A DNA stretch of 64,000 nucleotides. Source: Euglena gracilis. Taxonomy: Eukaryota. The stretch's first letter is position 1; each line of letters begins with the position of its first letter. The stretch lies in NCBI GenBank assembly GCA_039621445.1, contig CP154954.1:18338642-18402641 (forward strand), in the 5' to 3' direction. Below are positions 2,747 through 64,000 of this stretch, in pieces. Made by a program: the position numbers and the translations under genes. Under the pieces are notes generated by a model that was given only the letters and a program-made list of their open reading frames with translations, was not told the DNA's origin and ran no database searches.

Positions 2747-3899
2747 GTGCCTTGTAACCTTTTGAGTACATTCATTGCTTACATTCTGAAGAGCAGAAAC
2801 TTTGGACGTCGTCGGTTGGTGTTAAGTTGCTGCTGGCTTGTTTGAATGGCTTTCTCTGAAAACTTGGAGAGACAAAAAAAGCAGGAGAAACATTACATAC
2901 AAAATAAGGCAAAGGAGTTTATTTCCAAATTTTTCAGGAGTAGAAAAATATCATCGATGCATATGGCAGGGATTTTTCTTAAGGTCTCCGGGGAGCTGGC
3001 AGGGTTGAAAATGGTGCTGGCTGGAAAACAAAAGCGTTGGCTGGACCCCCCACCCTCCAGGGAGCGGTCCAGGGGCTACCGGGCTAGACCTGGCTGCCAC
3101 CTGAAAACAGCCAAAGAAAAGCGCTGGGTTGGACTTGTTTTGGGCAAAATTTTGAAGTGAAACCCCCAAAAGTACCAAAAATGGCCAACTTTGGCCATTT
3201 TGACCACCCCTTCAAGAGCCGTCGGCGCTTAAGGACGAAATTTTCTCGGTCTAGCCGGCTTCGCCGGGCTGGAAGAACCTTGTTTCCGCTCAACACCCGG
3301 AGGGGAGAGTCCACACCCTGGCTGGGAGCCGCTGGCAATTTCGGGGAGGGTGTGCGCCTATTTTCACTGATTTCCGGCATCGGGTTAGGGTTGGGACTGG
3401 CGTGCCAAAAATAGGTATATATGTGAGAAAATTTATGTGTCTCTGTCAATTTCTATGTATGTGTGTACATGTATGTATTTTTGCAATCTCCTGCAACGTT
3501 CAAAGAAACAAAACACTCACATATCAACAACATACATACACAGGTTTGTGGGAATGCATTGGGATACATATGCCAATACGCACAATGACACGTACAAAAC
3601 GATGTGAGTATAAAATGCGTATGCAAATGGACAATTGTGGCTCGGAGGCACGCAAACACACACACAGACACATCACATATCATGCAGACAAAGAAATACA
3701 ATACAAATGCACACATGCAAATGCAAAAGAATTTGGCATCAAACTAATGACCCCCCCACTGTCGGGTTGGCCAGTACCGAGGACCCTGACTTCCCATCAG
3801 GACAGGTTGGCCGGTACTGGGTCCCTGACAGCTTCCAGGGATGGACCCAAGGGGGGGGGGGGGTTGGTTCCAAAAGAAAACAAACCCGAAGGATGGCAG

Positions 3900-41374
<37,475 letters not shown>

Positions 41375-45919: not shown

Positions 45920-47588
45920 GAAGCCAGGGCTTTACGGGAAGGACAGGGAGCTCGAACCGAGGGTTCGACATAAGCCCCCCCCCCCCCCCGCTCCAGAAGG
46001 GGGAGGGCGGGAGGGTTGCGGTAGGAGGCCCACATAATTCACGTCTCCCCGGGACTCTGCCCCCCACGCCGGGGGGGGGGGGGGGGCAGCAGAACAAGGA
46101 GGGTTTGGTTGGGGGTTCCCCTCCACACCGTTCACTGGCTCAGACGCACCAGACAGGTGCAATGGTTCGGTAGGACAGATTCCTTGCGGCTCCCAACAGA
46201 GTCCTCAACGGGTCAACGGACCCCCCCCCTCGACCAGCGCCCTCTGGCCAAAGAATGGTATATCAGCAATGCTTTTGGGACAGGGCCTAGCACAGTAATA
46301 CAAGGAGGAATACCACAGTTTCATCACCTTCGTTTTCCAGCTCTAAACACGCTGACACAGGAGGCTCTTGGTTGTCTTTAAAATGATCGGTGTGCGAATG
46401 CGCACATCGTCCATATGTGCATTTGTGCACACTGACATCGCTTTAATTGTTGTTTTGGTGTCACAGAGTCTTAATCATCAGTGGGGCATTGACGGACAAC
46501 TTACAAATTCTACAAAACATCTCACGTTTAAGGATTTCAAATTGCAGTAGTGCTGAGCCCTCTAAATGGGACGCGGGACCACCAATTTTTCACAAAGTTG
46601 AAGGTTCAGGGTTTCGTTCCAGGCTTCGTCTCGCCTGCCCCAAATCTACCCATCAACATTCCATGTTGAGGAGGCAGGTGTTATGTTCCTGTATTCTGTG
46701 GTGACACCTGCTCTCAGGCACCCTGGCTTTCAAAGTCCCCGTTTCCATCTCCGCATCCTGGGGCACCACATCACATCCTCATTACATTATTGTGGTTTAA
46801 GGAGTCAGGAATTGTCGTTTTCACAGAAAATGTCGATGTGACTCCCATCATTCATCAATGGTCCGGGGGGGTACCCCATTCAAATAGTGGCATGGCTAAA
46901 ATGACAGGGTGTCTCTTGTGGCCTGGGGCGAAGCGTGGGCCGCTATTTTTCTCACCTCCACAAACTGGCCTAAAATGCATTTACAGGCACTCTGAGGCAA
47001 AGCTGACCGGAAAGAAAGTTGACTGAAAAGAAGTCAGCCAGGGATAATGGTGCGGCATTTGGTTTGCTTAGGTACTTGGACATTCCTTGGGGGGAAGGGG
47101 TACACGCTTCTTCAGTATCCCCAGCAAAACAAACCTCTTGATGAGGAGGTTAGTTGGGCCTTTAACTTAGGCGGCCGACTTCGCACTGAAAGATTTTTCC
47201 TTTGTCAATGCGCTCCACACCACACCGTTGTTTGAGTGTGTCCTACCCCCCCCCCCGGTAACTGGCTGGTTTTTTCGGAGTGACTGGCTGGTGTTTGGCC
47301 CCAACCCCCCCAGGGGGGGGGCAGGCCAGGAGTGGCCGAAAGTGGTCGCCCAGCACCGGAATTTTGCGTGGATTTTCAGACAAAAAATCCACTGATTTTA
47401 GGCCAGAGATACCAACCTCCCGGGGGGGGGGGGGGGGTGGATGACTGGTATGTGAAAAGTGATTGACTGGTTTTCTGAAAGTCCCCCCCTCCCCGGGGGT
47501 CGGCTAAGCAATGGCATGGTCCGGACCACCCCCTGGCCTCACATCACCCCCTGGGGGTGGCGTACCCTCATGGCATCTGCACCCGCAG

Positions 47589-50500
47589 ATCTCGGAGAGC
47601 ACGCTGCCGGGGGTGTCGAAGGCGATGTTTTACAACGAGGGCAAGACGCTGGTACACGAGATGGGCCACTTCCTCGGCCTGCTCCACACCTTCCCCCTGG
47701 CCCCCAGCTGCACCGGCCAGGCGCTCCGATTTGCCGTTGCTGCGCGCCGCATGGAGTTGGTGGTCTTGTGCGAGGCATAAGGCGGCAAAAGTGTCCCCCG
47801 GATGTTTTTTTTGTAACCCTGGCGGGGTGCCAGGTTGACTGGATCCACCGCCTTGCCTGCCAGGGTATTCGGGCATTGCCAGGGGAAAGAGTCCCATGGA
47901 GGTTAGTTGTGGCGGTGCTTACATGCGGCTGCATTTATCTTTGCCTTCTGTCGTGGGCCATTTTTCAGAGGGGGGGGGGACTGTAATTATTTTGGCATAG
48001 ATAACTCTATATAAGGACCTGATTTTTCCTCGGACCAAAGTTTTTGTCAAGTTTTATCATTTTTGCAGTTTTTGGCCAACAAATTCCATGTTTGGGGGTG
48101 CCTGGGGCAGGCACCCTATAGCACCCCATCCAACCCCCCCCCCCCCGGAGAGGGGGTAGGGTTTTTGGGGGGTGCTAGCAGGCAAGCACCTATAGCTAAA
48201 TGGCCTAAAATGGCCTAAAATGGCCTAAAATGGCCTAAAATGGGAAAATTTTCGTTGCACAACTGTAGCCATTCAGGTACTGACTTTTGGTGTCTTTTGT
48301 CAATGTGGACGGCGAACATTGGATTTGGTAGAGGAGCACAGCCCCGCAAGGCCCTTTTTTTTTATCCCAACTAATAATAGTATCAGTCCCCAAATCCACG
48401 GTCCCCAACCTTCTTTTGGTAGCTGAATTTTGAAGGTTTGGACAGCAGTATTTTTCTTACTCCCATCCTTTTTTTGGTGTGCAACGATGTCTGCTTCGCA
48501 GATAATGAAACAGTGCAAATTTGGAATGAAGTTTTAGTATTAAGTTTCTCCTAGGGGGAAACCAAACACGGAGAAGAGGAATTGTTTACAGCTTTGCCCT
48601 TTGATCTCTGCAATCGCCAAAAAAGGCCCAAATGGCAAAAAAAAAAACAATACCAAAATCAAATTGGATCTCACCAGGCAACAGCATCAAATTTGGCGTT
48701 GGACCGAAAATCCCCAAATGACGTCCAAGGTTGGGGGTGTCTTATGGCGTGGTTGGGATCTTATGTTTGGGGGGAGGTCAAGGCTTGGGAGTCAATCTTC
48801 AGGTACCAACTTCGTATGCATAACCCCCCCCCAGAGTTTGGCTCCCCTCCTCCTTCCATTCACACTTGGTTCCTTAATTTGTGTATATTCACGATTCCTT
48901 AATATGTATATAAGCCACGTGCAGACAATGAAGATGAATTATTCCCCCAGAAAAGTCAGGAACTTCTTTTTGCGAAATCCCGCAAAATGATATAGATTTC
49001 ACAAAATACAAAAAAACTGGGTGCTTTTTTGGTCGCACAAATAAAAACTTTTAATATTTGTCCACGTTTTTTTCCTGAAAATTTTTCATTGCCACAAATT
49101 CTTATTGTTCAGAATTCCTCTATGGGGCATGAATTAAGATTTGTTGAGCTTCCCATTGTTTTGATCCAGTGTTCATGAATTTTGCATGCTTTTTTGGATG
49201 TACATTTCTCATTACTGAGTAAGAGAAGGTTCGCACACGTTATTATGCAGTTTTCGCAAAATTATGATTTTCAGAACCCCCACCTATACCTTAAAATGGC
49301 CTAAAAGGGCCTTAAATGGCCTAAAATGGCCTAAAAAAAAAATGGCCTAAAATGGGAAATTTTTGGGCTTGACTATAGGTGCTTGCTAGCAGGCACCCCC
49401 CCCCTCCGACCCCAGCGCCAAAGGCGCCGGGGGCCCAGAAAAGGCCATTTTCAATGAAAATTTTCATTGGGGGGTGTGCCTGCTAGTGGCAGGCACCCTA
49501 TAGCACCCACCCCCCCCTTCCCCTCCCGGTCGGTAAGCACAAGCCAGCTCCAAATATCATATTTTGGATTTTTAGGAAAAATCTTTTTTGAATGACACCT
49601 AAACTCTTACCACTGTTGTTACAAAAAAACAAAGAAAATCTAGGTATGAAATATATATGAAATTTATCGCAGTCCACTTCAGCAGAAATGTGCCGGAATG
49701 TCCGAAATTAATTCCAGAATCGATTGGGATAAACCAAATAAACTGGAATAGAACCCTAAATAAAGTTTCGGGCCGGCCGGAATATGTCCCCCCCCCCCAG
49801 GGGCCACCAGATGGATGGCCACCGGGTGGGTGGGTGGTTGGGTGGAATGTGCCAGGGCCTTTTTTGAAAAACGGAGAAATGCGAAGGCGAAGCCCCCACA
49901 GGCGTTCCCCCTTGCACTGTTTGGGGGATGCCCCACCCCCACTTCCGAAGGACCACAACCGCCTGCGGCGGACCCTGCCGACATGGTGGACGACACCCCG
50001 GCCATGAGCACCCCGGCTAAGGTGCCCCCCGGCGTCTTCTTATTCCTGTCAGGACGTGACGTAGTGCCTTGGCCCGGCCGGCCAAAGCCCCAAACTCTTC
50101 CCACCTCCATCAACAAGTTTGGATTCCCATCCAGCCGGGTCTTATTTTGGGGTATTTTCCCGGAAACCTCCAGTGGGTATCTATTTTTTGGCAGAATTTC
50201 TACGGCCTCCCCGGCCCTTCAGGCCATCGGGGGGGGGGGGGGCTGAATGTTTGGGGGGTCTTATTTTTACTCAATCACTGAATCCTGTTGGATGCAGAAA
50301 CCCCGCTTTCTTTCAACGCTGTTGTTCGTCTTTCCAGGTTTTCAGGGACTTCACCTCGGAATTCCAGCCGATAAAATCCAACCCACCGGGATTTGGTCTT
50401 TTGCCATTTTTCAGGATCAACTGGATCTATCCTGGTAGCAGACCCCCCCCCCTCCTTCTGGACCCCTAAGCCACCTGGCTGCGGATCTTCAAGAATCCCC

Positions 50501-53500
50501 TATTTATATCCTGATGAATTCACGGAATAACGGAATGGAAAGCATTCTGGAATAATAAGCACAACAGCAGCCGGTGCTGAACGTGTGAGTGAATGAACCA
50601 AATTTGAAAACGATTCAGTGCTCACTGTTTTGAACAAACCCACCAACCCCCCGCCCCAGGAAAGTGTTGTGACCGAGAGAGAGCCTGCCTCTTCTGAGAC
50701 CATGTCTCCAACGCTGGCCGATTTGTTGACGCAGTCCTGTCCCAAAAAAAAAATACACAGATGCGCTAATAGAGAGCCGCTGCCTCCGGCGGCGGGGGTG
50801 CGCTTCTATTGGACCCAACCTGCATGACTTCTTGTTGATTTTCTTTTGAACCCCCTCAAAAATGGAGCATGTGCTTCCAAGGAACCGGAGTTTGGCGGTG
50901 CAGGGTCCGCTTCCATTTGGACCTGGGCTGGTAGCTGGCCCCGAACCTCTATTGTGGGGGGGGGGTCAGGAAATTGTCAAGGCCGCCGGTACTGACCGAC
51001 CATATGGGCTTGAGAGGGGAGTGACACCTTGCTGTCTCATCCACCCCAGGCACCTGAGAAGCATTTCCGGCCTGCGTGGGAGCGGTCGTGCACCACATCA
51101 TCTGCAATTTCATCGAATGCCCCTCCGGGGCCAGGACAGAACAGGCTTCGGCAAAATGGCCAGGGGGTGGGGGGGGGGGTCGACCCCCCCACCCCCTCCT
51201 CCGGCATTTCCGGGAGCACCAATTCTCGACCCCAAAGAATTTGTGAAAAATGCTGTGGTGGGTCTGGGTGGGGTGGGGGGTCGACCACCCTCCCACCAGG
51301 CCTTCCCGTTCTGCCCCGGACTTTCCAGCGTTCCTGCTCTCCGGCGCAGGGATGCCCCGCGGGGCGCAACACGTGCCCCGCCCGGCCGGGGGAGGACCCC
51401 ATCCACAACTACATGGGCTACACCGACGACAGCTGCATGTCCGAGTTCACGCCCAGGGCTACCGGGAACCCCAGAAACAGGCATTGGTTTTAGGGCATTC
51501 TTTTAAAAATGATTCAGGTATTTAAAGGTATTTTTGAGGCGTTTAAAGGCATTTCGTCGGAAATTCAAATTTTAGCCATTTTGAGGTTTTAAAAAAATAT
51601 ATAAATAAAAGTAAATACTTGAAAATAGCCATTGTTTATAATTTTATAATAATGTCTGCCCGGAAACTCTATGGGTGGTGGGTGGCAAGGGGGTCCGACA
51701 ACCCTCCACCCTCCAGTGGGGGGAGGTCAACCTGGAAACAGTCCTGTCCACGCCAGGGCAGAACGAGCGCATGCAGCAGGTGATGCAGCGATACCGCGCG
51801 CCGCTGGTGACGCAAGGTGGCGCGGTGCCTGGCCTGTAGGCATCGGCAGCGGAGACCACAACTCGTCGGTGGTTTGTAGGGTACAATGAGCGTCCCCACA
51901 ATAGATTGCCACACAGGGCTGTACAGGTGCACCAGCCAGGGGGAGGGATTTCTGGGGCACCAGTCACCCGGGTGTCTTATAGCCTCTCCAGGTTTAAGGG
52001 TAGTTCAACCCACAGTGTATATGTGTGTATATATAGAAATATATATACACATAATATATATATACATATATATACATATATATACGTCGATTAAGTGCAA
52101 TGCTGATTGTTCAAACAGAGTTTGAGTGCCTTGTCATTTTCCACAGGACTCGTGGCTGGTAATTGTACATTTGGGTATTGCATTTGCTCTGAAGCCTCCC
52201 GGACGTGCAGTTTTAACCCAGGTATTTGCTGTTTCAATCCCCATGGCATTTCTCTCATCAGTATTCAAATGATGTTGTTGGTTACGTGATTGTATTGAGT
52301 TTTGTTGTGTTTGTTGTCTTTGATGTGATGATGTCCAATTTATTTTTTATCTGACACAATTTTTGTTGTATGATGCAACATGAATATAAATGTATGGCGT
52401 GGTTGCAGTATGATGATTATTTTTTCAACATACGACATGATCATTGGCATGAAAAATAGGATGATTGATCGATAACAGATTTTTTGGCCCCCTCCGCTGT
52501 ATCTTTTGTCTTGCTATATTTTAGAACCATTTTCAAGGAATATTTGCTGTGCTTGTCGATTTCTGAAAGTACACACCCAGGCACAGCTTATCGACAGCTT
52601 TTCTCATGTATTTGTGTGTGTGTGTGTGTGTGTTGCAGTGTTTCTCAACTTGTTTTGTTTTCAATGTGTATTGTGAAGTAATGATGTTGCATCGTTGCTC
52701 GGCTTCTGACAGGACCCGTTTTCTTTTTATTGTGCCGATGTTTGCAATTTGGGAACATTTTTTTCTCAAACCGCATAAAGATTGGCAAGGCAGCGTTTTC
52801 AGCGTCTTTCGGGCACGCAGCTGCGAGATAAGTTATTGGCTCTATTCCCTTAGGATTTCATCTGTCTCTGTTTGGCGCGTGTGTGAAGCATGAAATGATT
52901 AAAGCCAAAAGTCCTGGGTCAGTATATCTTCGATCATGCGTGTATTTCTGAAACAGGAGGCATTTTCAGGTCCAAGCAATTTTTTTTTCCCACTGGGCCA
53001 GGGGATTGATTACTTTCCCAGGTGTTGATTGAAGTTGCTGGGAATAGGTTCAGCTCTCTCCCATTCAAATTGATGCAATGAAAAGGAAATGCCCAGATTT
53101 TTTATAATGTTTTCGGAGAAAAACACACCCCAGTCGGCATATCTGCCTGTTTCAGGTCCACATGTTCAGCTCATTCCATAAGCACTTTTCCTCCCGGCTT
53201 CCTGCAAGCGATTTGCCAGGTCTTTGGATCCGAACTGGTTGCACCAGTCAACCACAGAGTCAATTCAAAGTCCCATTGTAGACTACACGGGTTTATGCAA
53301 CACGGTCACCCCCCAACCCACCGTCTTTCGTTTCCACTTTCTTCCAATCAGGGGATGGAGGGTTGTGTGGCTGTGCCGTCCACGGCCAGTGCTCTGTCAC
53401 GGGAGGTTGCTATTGTGCCCCCAACTACACCGGGAAACATTGCGGTGTGCATCTCCACAGCAGATGATGTCCTCATCCACTGCGAATCGAAACGACACCT

Positions 53501-59232: not shown

Positions 59233-62200
59233 TTAAAAGCGCAAGGCTTTCTCGGACGGCGAGGTGCGAACTAGGAGAACAGAACCAGGGACCTCGGGCT
59301 CCGCACTTTTCCCTTGCGAAGCCATATTGCGGGCACTCCCAGGGAGGATGACCTGGGAGTACCGGAACATGAGGGCGAAGCAAAAAAGGGGGGTGAGGTC
59401 CTGCTTCTTTTGCCGGCTTGCTGTGTGATTGTTTTTTGGCGAGGACTTTCTTACTGCTTTTTGTTGCCGGAGTTGGCGTTTTCCTGATGTCTCCGCCGGT
59501 CCTGGTGAATGGAACACGGAAGGGGCCCTTTCCTCCTGGTCTTGCGGGCTCGTTCCTCCCCCGGGGGGGGGGGTGGGGGGGACCGGGGGGTGGGCGTGTT
59601 GGGGTTGGGATGGGTGGATCACCCCTCTTGGCTTTCTGCCCTCATGATCCGTTTCCCCCCAGGTCATCTCACTGGGGGGGGGGGGGGGGGGGGGCGGGCT
59701 CGCTTCCCCCCCAGTGGGGGGGGACGGGGGGTGGGCGTTTGTTGGGGTTGGGATGGGTGGGATCACCCCCTCTTGTGCTTCGCCCTCATGATCCGTTCCC
59801 CCCAGGTCATCCTCACTGGGAGTGCCAGACCATTCGGGCTGCGCACACTCTGGGGGTGAGGTGTTGTGCGCGCCCCTTGCCTTAATGAATATTTTTCCGC
59901 CTTTTCCACTGCACCCAATCTTAAATAAACCCCCAAAAAAAATAAGACCCCCCCAAAAAATAAGACCCCCCCCCAAAAAATAAGACCCCCTCTGGGCCGA
60001 TCGAGCAAAAATCCAAAAATAAGACCCCCCCCATAAATAAGACCCCCCCTGACGGCGCGAAGCGCCGGGGACGGTGAAAATTTTCCCTGAGAAATTGCCA
60101 AAAACCCAAATTTCACACACAAAAATGATGAAATTTCAAAAAATTTCAGATTCCTGAAGTGCAAAAAACATGCTGAATGTCAACTTACACAAATGTACAC
60201 ATGGCGCGAAGCGCCGAAGGAAAATTTCAAGTGTTTTTGGGAACCTCAAAAATGATGTTTTTTTCGGGCCCGGGTCGGTCAAGAAAAAAACGAAAAATAA
60301 GACCCCCCCAAAAATAAGACCCCCCCCCTGGAGGTTTCCAGCAACGGACCCAAAAATAAGACCCGGGTCTTATTTTGGGGGGGGGGTTAGTGTGCTGAAA
60401 AGACTTGTGAATTTTTCCATTGGCCAAGTTCACACACTTCTTCACTTGAAAACCCCAAGGTTTTGTACATCAGCACTCCAGCACCCCTTGTAGAATGAGC
60501 AGTCCAGTGAGACACGGGGAATCCAAATTTTTCCATGAGATCTTTTGCCAAAGAATTAATGGTATTGGAGGTGAGGGGTTTTTTCCCATCCAAACTCCAG
60601 AGTAATGGTCCCCCAGGGGCAAAAAGGATGTACGTTTCACATACTCTAACATGACATGATAAGGGGGTAAAAGGGGGTTGGAATCATTTTTCAAGAGTTG
60701 TTCCCACTTTGGCACTTTCCAGCCCTTTCTCTGGAACAAAACGAAAATCTTTTCACCAACCACAGAGAGAGATCTCTGTGTTCTGGCCAAATCAATACCC
60801 CTGTGTAAGGCAAAGAGTCTGAACAACAAAATGATTCTGAGTCTCAACTCACTGGTGGCCATGATGTCCAGTGGACCCCCCTCCCCCAGTTTCTGTAAGA
60901 TGGGCAGGGGATCCCAAAAGGTTGCATATTTCTGAACATTTTTATTCCAACAGGATTTAACATCCTTCAACAAAGGGTGAAAAGAGACACGTTGGAAACC
61001 AGGGAGTGATGTGACTGCAAATAAAGCGTTTCTGGCGTCAGCACTCGTCATTCTGTGCAGCTCCAGGATGCTGTGCACAATGTCCAAGGTGGTTGCCTGC
61101 AGGGGGTCCAGACCCTTGCCTTGCAGCAGCACATACAATTTTCTGAAGGCCCTGTTGTATCTCATCAGAGTGGAGGCACGTTTTAAGATAATGTCAATTT
61201 GTGAAGCTGACACTGTTTGCTGTTCCAAAAGGAACCTGAAACAATGCTGCAGGCTAGGGGCCATTTTCGCCTGGGCATTGATTCCCCCCAAGAGTTTTTG
61301 AACATCCCTTGGCAGGGGGGAATCACTAACATTTTCGCCCCAGGTTTGGACATTTTTGTTAACAGGGGCCACCATGCACTTGAAAGCCACATGGGGGTTA
61401 CTAAAAGGCATTTTACCTGTTTGTTCATAGAAAGTTTGATGAGCCAGGGCATTATGACTTTCCGGGGGGTTGGCATACACTTCCACCACGCCATCCAGAC
61501 TGCAGTTCAGAGCATCCACCAGAAAAGCTTGGTGGTGAAGCCATCTGGAACAAAATTTTGGGAACTTCGTGTTCCCTGGGAATGCAAACATGTCCACTGA
61601 TGGGGTGATGTGCCCTTGAAAAAATCTGAAAATTTTTTGAAACATGATGGGGTTTAGGGTATAATCCCCCCTGTCCTGTGACCACCTTGTTAGGGGGTCT
61701 GCCACCACCTTTTCGGAGGGTACCCACTGGACATGGAGCTGAACTTTGTTTTGCCAGCACCACTTGAAAAGGGGGTGTAAAATTCTGCTTAGGTTTTCTT
61801 TCCTTCCCCCCCATTTTTGTAGATAGCTTACGGCTACGTGATTGTCCACATTCAGAAGGACAGTTTCTCCTGGCTTTGCAAAGGCTTTCACAGTGTTTAC
61901 TGCTGCAGCTAATTCCTTCACATTTATGTGGAGCAAACTTTGCTCCACCCAAAAATCCTGGATGAACAAATTTTTTGTGCTGTCAACCCCCCCCAGGCCC
62001 AGGTGGATGAGTCGGAGTGCAGCACATGTTTGGGTGTTTTTAAGAAGGGTCGACCTGCCCCTGGCACCAGGAACTCTTTGAGATGTTTGATTTCCAGTTT
62101 CAACTGGGGGGGTATTGGTACTGCAAAATCCCAGCCCATGGTATCGTTTAACTGGCTGAATTTTTTGACATTCCTGTGTGACCAGCCTTAGGAATGGAAG

Positions 62201-64000
62201 GGCAGGGAGGTGCGAACGTATTTGCCCTAGGATGCTGGCAATTTTTCTGCAAGAAAGGCTTTGAGCTAAGACCACTTTCCCCAGTTCCTTTCTGATGATT
62301 TTTAATTTTCCAGCTGGCACCTCCAGCAGCCACTCCTGCAGGTGGATGATGAACCCCAGGTGCTGCAGCTTTTCAGTGGGGGAGAGAATGGATTTTTTCA
62401 GGTTTATTTTGAAACCTGCAGAGCACAGATTGTTGATCATCATGGCCAGTTGCTCTTTTACCAAATTTTCTGAGGAACCAATTAGAATGATGTCGTCCAA
62501 ATAAACGAATGCCATGAGCCGATTTGATATCCAGAGTCTTTGGAGCACTTTCATGAGGGACATGAAAATTTCTGGAAGAGTGCTTAGACCAAAACAAGCA
62601 CCTTGAAACTCCCACAGCCTTCCCCCTACTTCCATCCTTACAATTTTTTTGAAAATTTCTTGAAGGGCCAGGTGAAAGTAGGCATCTTTGAGATCCAGCT
62701 TTGCAGCATACCAGCCTTGCTTTAGGAGAGGAAAAATGGTGGAGATGTTTTCCAAGGTGAATTTTTTTGGGGAACAGTAAAGATTGAGTTGCCTGCAGTC
62801 TGCAATGAGACGATGTTTTACCCCCTCCCCTTCTGGTCTGCTCAACAAAAACCAGGGAACCAGATGCCTGGTGTTTTGCGGATATGTAACCACTTTGACA
62901 GCTCCTGATTTTTTGTAATCCTTCAAAATTTCTGTGGCCAGTAAAGTTTTTGGCTTGTTCTTTTGATGTGGACAGGTGGAAAGCTTTTCTGGAAGGGGTC
63001 GATCTGGTCCCACCCCTTGTCGGATCATTCGCACCACTTTGGTGTGAGCGTGGGTTTTCAACCAGGGGAGACATTCTCTCAACCTCTGAAAGACAGGGGA
63101 ATCTTTCCATCTTTCCTCCTGACTTAGGATTATCCTTACAACCCCCTCTTCCCACTCCCCTGGCTGCTGCTGCAGATTGGGGCTCTGGGCCCCCTGGTTG
63201 GGGCTGGCTGATATGGAACATGAGGTTGTGGGACAAGGTAATGGTTGTGGGGCATCTTGCTCCTTCCAGATCCTGATGGCTTGACTCCTGTTCACCCCAA
63301 TCTGGGGTCTGTCTGGTGCCCTCTCCAGGGGCCTGGGTGTCAGGGCTTCCCTCTGCCCTTTCTCCTGCAGTGGAAATGTAGGGAAGAATGAGATTTGATT
63401 GGGTGCCATACCCTTTGGAGGTCCAGGGACTTCTCCATACTGGGCTGCCATAGCCTCCCCTGCCACCCTTGAATCCTCCTTTGAAACCCTTGAATCCTGC
63501 TTAAAATTTCCAGCCTCGGCTGCCTGTGGGGGTGGGAAAATGCCACCATTCCACCCGACCCACTGGTGTGTGCATACCAGCAATGTTCAGCTGTTGCTGA
63601 GTCCTCTCCACCCGAAGATCTTCTTTTGAAAATAGACCGTTTGATGTTGAAGGTATGGATCCTGGAACACTTCGACGTTTCCGTTCTCGTAGAAGGCCTT
63701 GTTCTAATTCCGCCATGGCGAAGAAGAGCTGCTGGAAGAGGACTCTGTAGTCCTCTGGCAAAGTATCCACTTGACTGTAGATGGTGGCCATCATCCTCAT
63801 CAAGTGTATGACCCTTTGTTGAACACCTTTCAGCATCTTGTCCATGGGTGCTTTGGCATCCTGGTTGTGGTTGTTGTCCTCGGCGCGCATTTTCAGGTCC
63901 TGGAAGAGTGGCAGCTCGTGGAGGACTTGTTTCCAGGGTGACCTTGTACCTGCCGCCGCCTGCTTGAGGCAGGCCGACAGCCCTTGAGGGAGGGGGGTCG
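59233..64000 (-). mobile_element. DIRS1-like tyrosine-recombinase retrotransposon (gag-like, RT, RNase H, Dam-like methyltransferase, YR), frameshifted, runs off the window
   Basis: LDLKDAYFH, FGLS, YLDD; HSDSS/HINVKEL/VDN (RNase H); DMFA...YANPP (MT); HSTRGAG...LGQWKN...SAH|Y (YR); gag-like ORF 63501-63890; 3' inverted repeat 59332-59382 / 59777-59826. Confidence 0.9.
59928..60387. mobile_element. TA-flanked MITE inserted in the DIRS YR gene
   Basis: ACCCCCAAAA..AATAAGACC / GGTCTTATTTTGGGGG..GT ends; relative at ~4648-4938. Confidence 0.8.

Follow-up and report, generated by a model that had tools for sequence, protein, structure and literature searches.

A gene for a peptidase M43 zinc metalloprotease on Euglena gracilis contig CP154954.1 (assembly GCA_039621445.1) is interrupted by a 301 nt stretch, 51451–51751 on the plus strand, with the properties of an intron, and the two borders of this stretch carry near-identical 8 nt direct repeats (TTCACGCC and TCCACGCC) placed directly outside a short terminal stem. 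The question posed by this locus is whether the repeat records an insertion, i.e. is a target-site duplication (TSD) left by a mobile element, or has arisen in some other way. All coordinates refer to the window, which is the whole 64,000 nt stretch analysed (forward-strand positions 18,338,642 to 18,402,641 of the contig). An earlier note on this window had interpreted the repeat as a TSD, and had placed it within a series of decaying duplications of different ages. Our analysis favours the first of these ideas: with a probability of roughly 0.6, the repeat is most likely the TSD of a short terminal-inverted-repeat element that inserted into M43 coding sequence, the intron as it now stands being a composite.

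A putative nonconventional intron in an M43 protease gene

The upstream open reading frame (ORF), which harbours a HExxHxxGxxH zinc site, matches the Pfam family Peptidase_M43 (PF05572) with an E-value of 2.2e-5 (24.9 bits, cut-off 23), and both features that define membership of peptidase M43 are present, namely this site and the C-terminal block ..Y.D..CM..FT.GQ..RM. When exons were submitted to Pfam singly, only that containing HEMGH produced a match, with exons 4 and 5 giving none, and the last exon, used singly as a query against solved structures, also returned no match. At the junction, the upstream exon aligns with ulilysin as far as ...CMVMFT. A word-based protein search using a 45 aa in-frame reference as the query retrieved four proteins, all with PF05572, each of which reads EFT(G/P/A)GQ..RM uninterrupted over the junction; one of the four displays an exact 11-residue match, and none has an indel at the insertion site. 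By tblastn, the upstream exon extends to 51451 and the downstream exon begins at 51750, the Thr-Pro codons being doubled by the repeat. The spliced four-exon model (Table 1) comprises 122 residues plus stop, and aligns with all four homologues (E-values of 2e-38 to 5e-35, 55–58 % identity) without a gap at any of its three junctions. This bears out the earlier claim that removal of the intron is needed to build the M43 motif. The N-terminal half of the protease gene was not found by tblastn.

For Euglena, an experimental splicing code, 5′-N3-CDG-/-CH′G-N5-6|R(exon), has been reported, according to which splicing is lost when the 5′ spacer deviates from 3 nt, and the optimum for the 3′ spacer is 5 nt (PMC12501133). 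All sequence rules of this code are satisfied by register 51451–51751, in which the spacer GCC is followed by CAG at +4 to +6 (51454–51456), CTG lies at −8 to −6 (51744–51746) ahead of the spacer TCCAC, and the exon resumes with G at 51752. CACGCC is repeated at both junctions, and the seven registers with intron starts from 51448 to 51454 all yield an identical mRNA. GT/GC–AG ends occur in none of these (0/7), and 51451–51751 itself lacks the GT/GC–AG sites by which a spliceosomal introner is recognised. The borders had previously been described as independently fixed; this is correct for the junction, which is set by M43 homology, and incorrect for the borders proper, which slide over the seven starts. 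Because the ends conform to the code, no register offers GT/GC–AG, and the reading frame is restored relative to 4/4 homologues, the sequence supports 51451–51751 as an intron of the euglenid nonconventional (non-spliceosomal) type in a nuclear M43 zinc-metalloprotease gene.

With regard to structure, the stem CAGGGCT/AGTCCTG spans 7 bp as RNA, with six Watson–Crick pairs and one G·U, and any extension of the helix beyond it depends on G·U pairs. Folded by itself, the intron contains this 7 bp helix in its minimum-energy structure, with 3 and 5 unpaired bases left at the ends; the same helix is also found when the outer part is folded alone. Rfam and tRNA scans of the window found nothing.

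Identity and chance expectation of the 8 nt repeat

The two copies of the repeat are identical at 7/8 positions, with the sole mismatch at repeat position 2, a C at 51748 within the intronic part. The pair can be read directly at 51446–51453 and 51747–51754, on either side of the stem, just as the earlier note had it, and was recovered independently by a repeat-finding scan of the window.

As a background for such matches, 51,704 CAG..CTG pairs from the window were used (spacing 30–3000 nt, low-complexity 8-mers removed), comparing in exact register the 8 nt before CAG with the 8 nt after CTG. A match of at least 7/8 occurs in 43/51,704 pairs (8.3e-4), with ten shifted control registers giving 20–50/51,704. 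This corresponds to p ~8e-4 for one intron predefined by protein homology, and it is unlikely that one such intron would reach 7/8 by chance. Taken singly, the repeat is suggestive rather than proof, because the earlier reader had inspected many introns, because blind window-wide scans (for an 8 nt repeat combined with either CAG..CTG or the general code) reveal no excess at the true register over shifted ones, and because a free local alignment of both junction regions has a score of 11, a value that 2.24 % of 20,000 random pairs of the same spacing also attain (p = 0.022). A scan of all 64 terminal trinucleotides was dominated by microsatellites and was uninformative.

The same three points are those that speak for coincidence, i.e. 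for an ordinary ‘slidable’ junction of the kind found at most Euglena introns, which would hold no historical information. To these can be added the report that short junction repeats accompany 84.4 % of E. agilis introns (PMC12501133). Set against such an explanation is the in-register background of only 8e-4 per pair, and also the behaviour of other elements within the window.

A dispersed repeat family in the same register

The window contains a dispersed family of repeats resembling transposable elements of the miniature inverted-repeat type (MITEs), the termini of which read CAGGGGTTTTTT.. and ..AAAAAACCCCTG. Its copy at 10374–10632 matches 39890–40140 (78 % identity, 255 nt) and 30396–30674 (70 %). 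In all three complete copies, for which the ends are set by homology, the in-register 8-mers are closely similar: ATGTGGAA stands on both sides of the first (8/8), which confirms an observation made previously for 10369–10635, whilst the second is flanked by GGCGAGTC and GGTGAGTC (7/8) and the third by GGCCACCC and GTCCACCC (7/8).

When the assumed flank length was varied from 4 to 12 for six elements (the three family copies, the protease intron, the AT-rich element nested within it, and 41230–41312), identity was best at exactly 8 in 6/6, with other lengths at chance level. For the protease intron this means 7/8 at a length of 8, and chance-level identity at lengths of 4–7 and 9–12. By eye, the 8-mers of the six elements share no common pattern, and no target-site preference is evident. 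A peak at 8 and nowhere else, along with three homology-defined copies that all display at least 7/8, argues against coincidence, which we judge to be decidedly improbable. Conversely, the reading of the repeat as an insertion footprint is founded upon the family copies (8/8, 7/8 and 7/8), the nested element (7/8) and the best length of 8 in all six cases. The TSD interpretation of the earlier note is thereby supported, in that the repeat sits exactly at the position of a TSD and independent elements of the window share the same 8 nt register.

Unlike the others, the copy at 39884–40151 ends with CTA; its would-be exon starts with a pyrimidine, and it sits inside another family fragment (39819–40160). 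Judged from these bases, splicing of this copy would not be expected under the published code. Since it departs from the code and is nested in another copy, the family behaves as mobile DNA independent of splicing. Many further termini of the form CAGG..T-run..TTAAG/ACC are present, either solitary or distantly paired (2967, 6631, 7948, 15245, 40206, 42921, 56485 and others), and the terminal 12-mer, allowing at most two mismatches, has 34 matches in the window against 21.8 expected.

A nested element and a candidate minus-strand intron

The element nested within the protease intron has a GC content of 0.26, against 0.62 and 0.64 in the outer intron arms, and its boundary is sharp. It possesses its own in-register 8-mers, CCCAGAAA (51470–51477) and CCCGGAAA (51659–51666), which agree at 7/8. 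In dinucleotide shuffles of the intron, a stem of at least 7 bp combined with a repeat of at least 7/8 arises in 2/3000 cases, and a stem of at least 9 bp in 0/3000; the terminal stem of the element is absent from the minimum-energy fold. The stretch 51478–51658 also agrees in sequence with the published splicing code, and may represent a nested (‘twin’) nonconventional intron. Nesting is thus seen twice in the window, here and in the family copy that lies inside another.

The 6/8 repeat previously described at 41225–41315 is likewise real, and the published code places a candidate intron at exactly 41315–41225 on the minus strand. That this repeat might be a by-product of a CCCGGG palindrome was considered and dropped, as the minus-strand code register gives 6/8 outside the 13 bp stem.

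Alternative origins of the repeat

A number of findings weigh against the insertion of a transposable element. At the DNA level, CAGGGCT/AGTCCTG is an inverted repeat at 6/7 positions only. The junction repeat, slipped by one base, runs on for another five (TTCACGCCCAGGGC versus TCCACGCC-AGGGC), which is not predicted by an 8 bp duplication, and therefore a longer duplication, of 13–14 nt, fits better unless the run-on is coincidental. No second copy of 51446–51754, whether as the 293 nt element or its 181 nt core, was found within the 64-kb window, and when the 150 longest out of 829 ORFs (at least 50 aa) were scanned against Pfam, only RVT_1 and MIB_HERC2 appeared, with no transposase. In the other nonconventional intron of the protease gene, 47715–49970, the in-register 8-mers agree at only 3/8, and a 4 nt repeat, CGGC, adjoins the termini. 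Pairs with good termini and no repeat also exist, namely 2967–6242 (2/8), 34547–38095 (2/8) and 15245–15417 (1/8); such long-distance pairs may represent old introns, or termini that belong to separate copies. Once the fold takes in 10 nt of exon at either end, the ensemble probability of the terminal stem is at most 0.001, with competing pairings to the 3′ exon being favoured, and the thermodynamic fold of the whole intron is not unusual (z −1.49). The absence of any excess in the blind scans belongs to the same side of the balance. An empty-site paralogue of the insertion was searched for within the window, and none was found.

Several of these points could also be accommodated by double-strand-break (DSB) repair, whereby a staggered break would be filled in and unrelated DNA captured, leaving a short duplication, with the insert surviving as an intron by virtue of a CAG..CTG helix that it chanced to have or acquired later. 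Repair of this kind was proposed for a young gapC intron with 8 nt repeats (PMC4770533), and for the protease intron it could account for a repeat readable as 13–14 nt with one slip and one mismatch, for the lack of a second copy in the window, and for the weak inverted repeat in DNA. It predicts a variable length of duplication, however, whereas 6/6 elements peak at exactly 8; three of these six constitute one sequence family with conserved termini, and the second, nested element has the same architecture. We therefore regard DSB repair as rather unlikely.

A repeat at this position might also be functional, if the splicing machinery required identical spacers, and it does sit exactly on the two spacers, the lengths of which are critical for splicing (PMC12501133). 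The same study, however, describes the spacers as random in sequence, and derived its code from non-slidable introns along with synthetic introns that splice. In addition, intron 47715–49970 conforms to the code with its 3/8 match, and a functional requirement is, in our estimation, scarcely credible.

Two aspects of the junction sequence can be noted separately. Owing to the slipped run-on (51446–51459 versus 51747–51759), the downstream exon opens with bases similar to those of the 5′ stem arm, and the copy of the repeat in that exon is able to pair locally with the 3′ stem arm as a hairpin.

A possible route of insertion and excision

Under the favoured explanation, namely insertion of a terminal-inverted-repeat element, an element with CAGGG...CCTG termini would have entered the continuous sequence ...GAG TTC ACG CCA GGG... 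at TTCACGCC, duplicating TTCACGCC in the process. Following the published model, a helix anchored on CAG (+4 to +6) and CTG (−8 to −6) would then bring both intron ends together within the pre-mRNA; cleavage would fall 3 nt ahead of CAG and 5 nt past CTG, with the exons being joined and the intron released as a circle. What leaves in this way would be the element along with 3 + 5 = 8 flanking bases, precisely the length of a single copy of the 8 bp duplication. As one copy would be removed together with the element, the reading frame Phe-Thr-Pro-Gly-Gln would be restored. The T-to-C difference between the copies would have arisen later, by substitution in the intronic copy, which is unconstrained; it is placed there since the Phe codon conserved in 4/4 homologues is intact in the exonic copy. 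At a later stage, the 181 nt AT-rich element, of the same architecture, would have inserted into the first to produce the composite intron.

The protease intron helps to connect origin with mechanism, uniting a junction fixed by homology, ends that agree with the code, and an 8 nt footprint that adjoins inverted termini. Taken together, this intron, the repeat family and the nested element suggest that the machinery removes an inserted element plus one copy of its duplication. A much broader proposition, which we put forward tentatively and consider less probable than its negation, is that the nonconventional introns of this genome are, or descend from, a recognisable MITE-like superfamily with 8 bp TSDs and CAGGG...CCCTG ends. 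In such a scheme the 3 and 5 nt spacers would sum to 8 since the machinery excises the element and one duplication copy, repeated invasion would build long composite introns, and the intronic halves of the duplications would decay neutrally. Were this true, any such insertion into an exon would be silently repaired at the RNA level. A possible lead for the classification of these elements is the hAT superfamily, which produces 8 bp duplications and often has termini starting with CAG or TAG.

Repeat identity and intron age

The earlier note went further, in proposing that repeat identities of 8/8, 7/8, 6/8 and approximately zero form a usable age series of decaying TSDs. The window does not bear this out, as the series consists of three introns, none independently dated, with eight sites each. 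One mismatch in eight corresponds to a per-site divergence anywhere from below 1 % to about 50 % (binomial interval), and so wide an interval does not allow 8/8, 7/8 and 6/8 to be placed in temporal order. Nor does the divergence of family copies, estimated from pairwise identities, show a trend, being ~12 %, 18 % and 10 % for the 8/8, 7/8 and 7/8 copies, respectively.

There are, nevertheless, observations on the side of such a series. The mismatch in the protease intron falls in the unconstrained intronic copy. Counted by hand in the supplement of PMC4770533, the repeat of the strain-specific gapC intron agrees at 8/8, and 54 rows of nonconventional or intermediate introns common to six strains agree at 1–6 of 8 (157/432 positions; a hand count in which small errors are possible), these rows being orthologous and hence not independent. 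Also from that supplement, and again by hand count, hsp90 intron 5 differs amongst strains, with values of 1, 4, 6, 5, 4 and 4. The idea is therefore in line with the published tables, and the contrast had already been remarked upon by the authors of PMC4770533. With almost no time resolution in eight sites, we regard repeat identity as a doubtful measure of age.

Relation to described introns and elements

That these introns might have originated from mobile elements is not new. A MITE-like origin was proposed from inverted repeats and frequent junction repeats (PMC3935182), TSD-like repeats were described as frequent at nonconventional junctions, with MITEs as the likely source of the introns (PMC11282704), and the suggestion has since been restated in work that has 71.8 % of E. 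agilis introns leaving by a non-spliceosomal route (PMC12501133). The strain-specific, recently gained gapC intron was reported to have eight-nucleotide repeats, longer than those at other introns (PMC4770533). TSD-like repeats, a MITE origin and an 8 nt repeat at a recently gained intron are thus already published, and the protease intron alone is one more case of something already described. What it adds is a junction that homology establishes, complete accord with the 2025 code, a nested element, and a co-resident family with 8 nt footprints. In the open literature searched, no paper was found that describes a multi-copy family or the 3 + 5 = 8 relation, although one may still exist elsewhere.

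In comparison with other euglenid nonconventional introns (Milanowski et al. 2014, 2016; Nomura et al. 2025, PMC12501133), that of the protease gene has the same lack of GT–AG, the same CAG at +4 to +6 and CTG at −8 to −6, spacers of 3 and 5 nt, and a purine at the exon start. A slidable junction and a gene shared with a conventional intron are also common to both, and the protease intron may likewise form a terminal helix. Introns of this class leave the pre-mRNA later than the conventional ones and are released as circular RNA. No difference in sequence was apparent, the intron of the protease gene being known here from its sequence alone.

A close counterpart is intron 4 of gapC in E. agilis ACOI 323 (PMC4770533), in which the repeat, GTCCCAAC at 8/8 in the supplement, likewise adjoins inverted termini and is split in the same manner (5 exon + 3 intron / 5 intron + 3 exon). 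The two differ in that gapC has 8/8 and CAT..ATG termini, whereas the protease intron has 7/8 and CAG..CTG. In E. agilis strain ACOI 2970, from the same supplement, hsp90 intron 9 has at its 5′ terminus the same 12 bases as the family of the window.

With MITEs and other non-autonomous terminal-inverted-repeat transposons, the protease element shares its short size, AT-rich core, flanking duplication of fixed length and nesting, and possibly its inverted termini, and the window also contains a multi-copy family whose terminal pentamer is the same. It differs from them in being single-copy within the window, in its 6/7 inverted repeat, and in the lack of a transposase amongst the ORFs scanned. 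Introners (of Micromonas, Aureococcus, dinoflagellates and others), as described in PMC11282704, are similar in that transposon-like elements serve as introns and their junctions keep TSDs and inverted repeats. Unlike the protease intron, which is without spliceosomal borders, they are spliceosomal, with GT/GC–AG partly co-opted from the duplication, and have duplications of 3–5 nt.

Further features of the protease gene and the window

The features located in the window are collected in Table 1.

Table 1. Positions of the protease-gene features, the repeat family and the candidate introns within the window
Feature	Position	Strand	Remarks
5′ copy of 8 nt direct repeat, TTCACGCC	51446..51453	+	First 5 nt exonic (Phe-Thr codons), last 3 nt intron spacer
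3′ copy of 8 nt direct repeat, TCCACGCC	51747..51754	+	First 5 nt intron spacer, last 3 nt exonic
5′ stem arm / terminal inverted repeat, CAGGGCT	51454..51460	+	Adjoins TTCACGCC; paired in minimum-energy fold
3′ stem arm / terminal inverted repeat, AGTCCTG	51740..51746	+	Adjoins TCCACGCC; one G·U against 5′ arm
Nested AT-rich element, 181 nt	51478..51658	+	CAGGCATTG/TAATGTCTG stem of 9 bp with 2 G·U; CAG..CTG ends
M43 exon with zinc site	47589..47714	+	PF05572 and homologue alignment
Second nonconventional intron of protease gene, 2256 nt (putative)	47715..49970	+	CAGGCG/CGCCTG stem; agrees with code
M43 exon	49971..50021	+	Homologue alignment
Conventional GT–AG intron, pyrimidine-rich 3′ end	50022..51349	+	Homologue alignment
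M43 exon ending ...DSCMSEF-T	51350..51450	+	Homologue alignment
Last M43 exon, including stop codon	51752..51842	+	Homologue alignment
MITE-like family copy, termini CAGG..T-run / A-run..CCCCTG	10374..10632	+	ATGTGGAA on both sides, 8/8
Second complete family copy	30391..30674	+	Flanks GGCGAGTC / GGTGAGTC, 7/8
Third complete family copy	39884..40151	+	Flanks GGCCACCC / GTCCACCC, 7/8; 3′ end CTA, not CTG
Partial family copies	37906–38098; 34550–34659		Sequence homology
Candidate nonconventional intron, CGG..CCG type, 91 nt	41225..41315	−	13 bp stem; GGCAAGCC / GGAAGGCC, 6/8 in register

The homologues of the protease that were retrieved are bacterial (Sphaerisporangium) or environmental proteins, with 67–79 % identity over the query exon. 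Judging by these matches, the gene could have a bacterial origin, and if so all of its introns would have been gained later. Within the introns of the gene, three instances of a GGGGGTC(C)GAC..CCC module are present. Hairpins of G-runs and C-runs are abundant throughout the window, with 16 of the G5..C5 and 40 of the C5..G5 type against fewer than one in shuffles; examples are found at 51169–51190, 51275–51290 and 51689–51704.

Two other CAG..CTG pairs display an 8/8 repeat in register. One, 47327–48104, spans the HEMGH exon and hence cannot be an intron of the protease gene, whilst the other, 8019–8056, is a 38 nt hairpin; approximately one to two in-register 8/8 matches of this kind are expected by chance. 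Beyond the protease gene, an uninterrupted ORF of 1038 aa at 60473–63586 on the minus strand contains a reverse-transcriptase domain (RVT_1, E-value 2.2e-15) and is probably a retroelement. An exon-sized ORF at 22898–23311, also on the minus strand, has a MIB_HERC2 domain (E-value 4.9e-11) and marks another gene.

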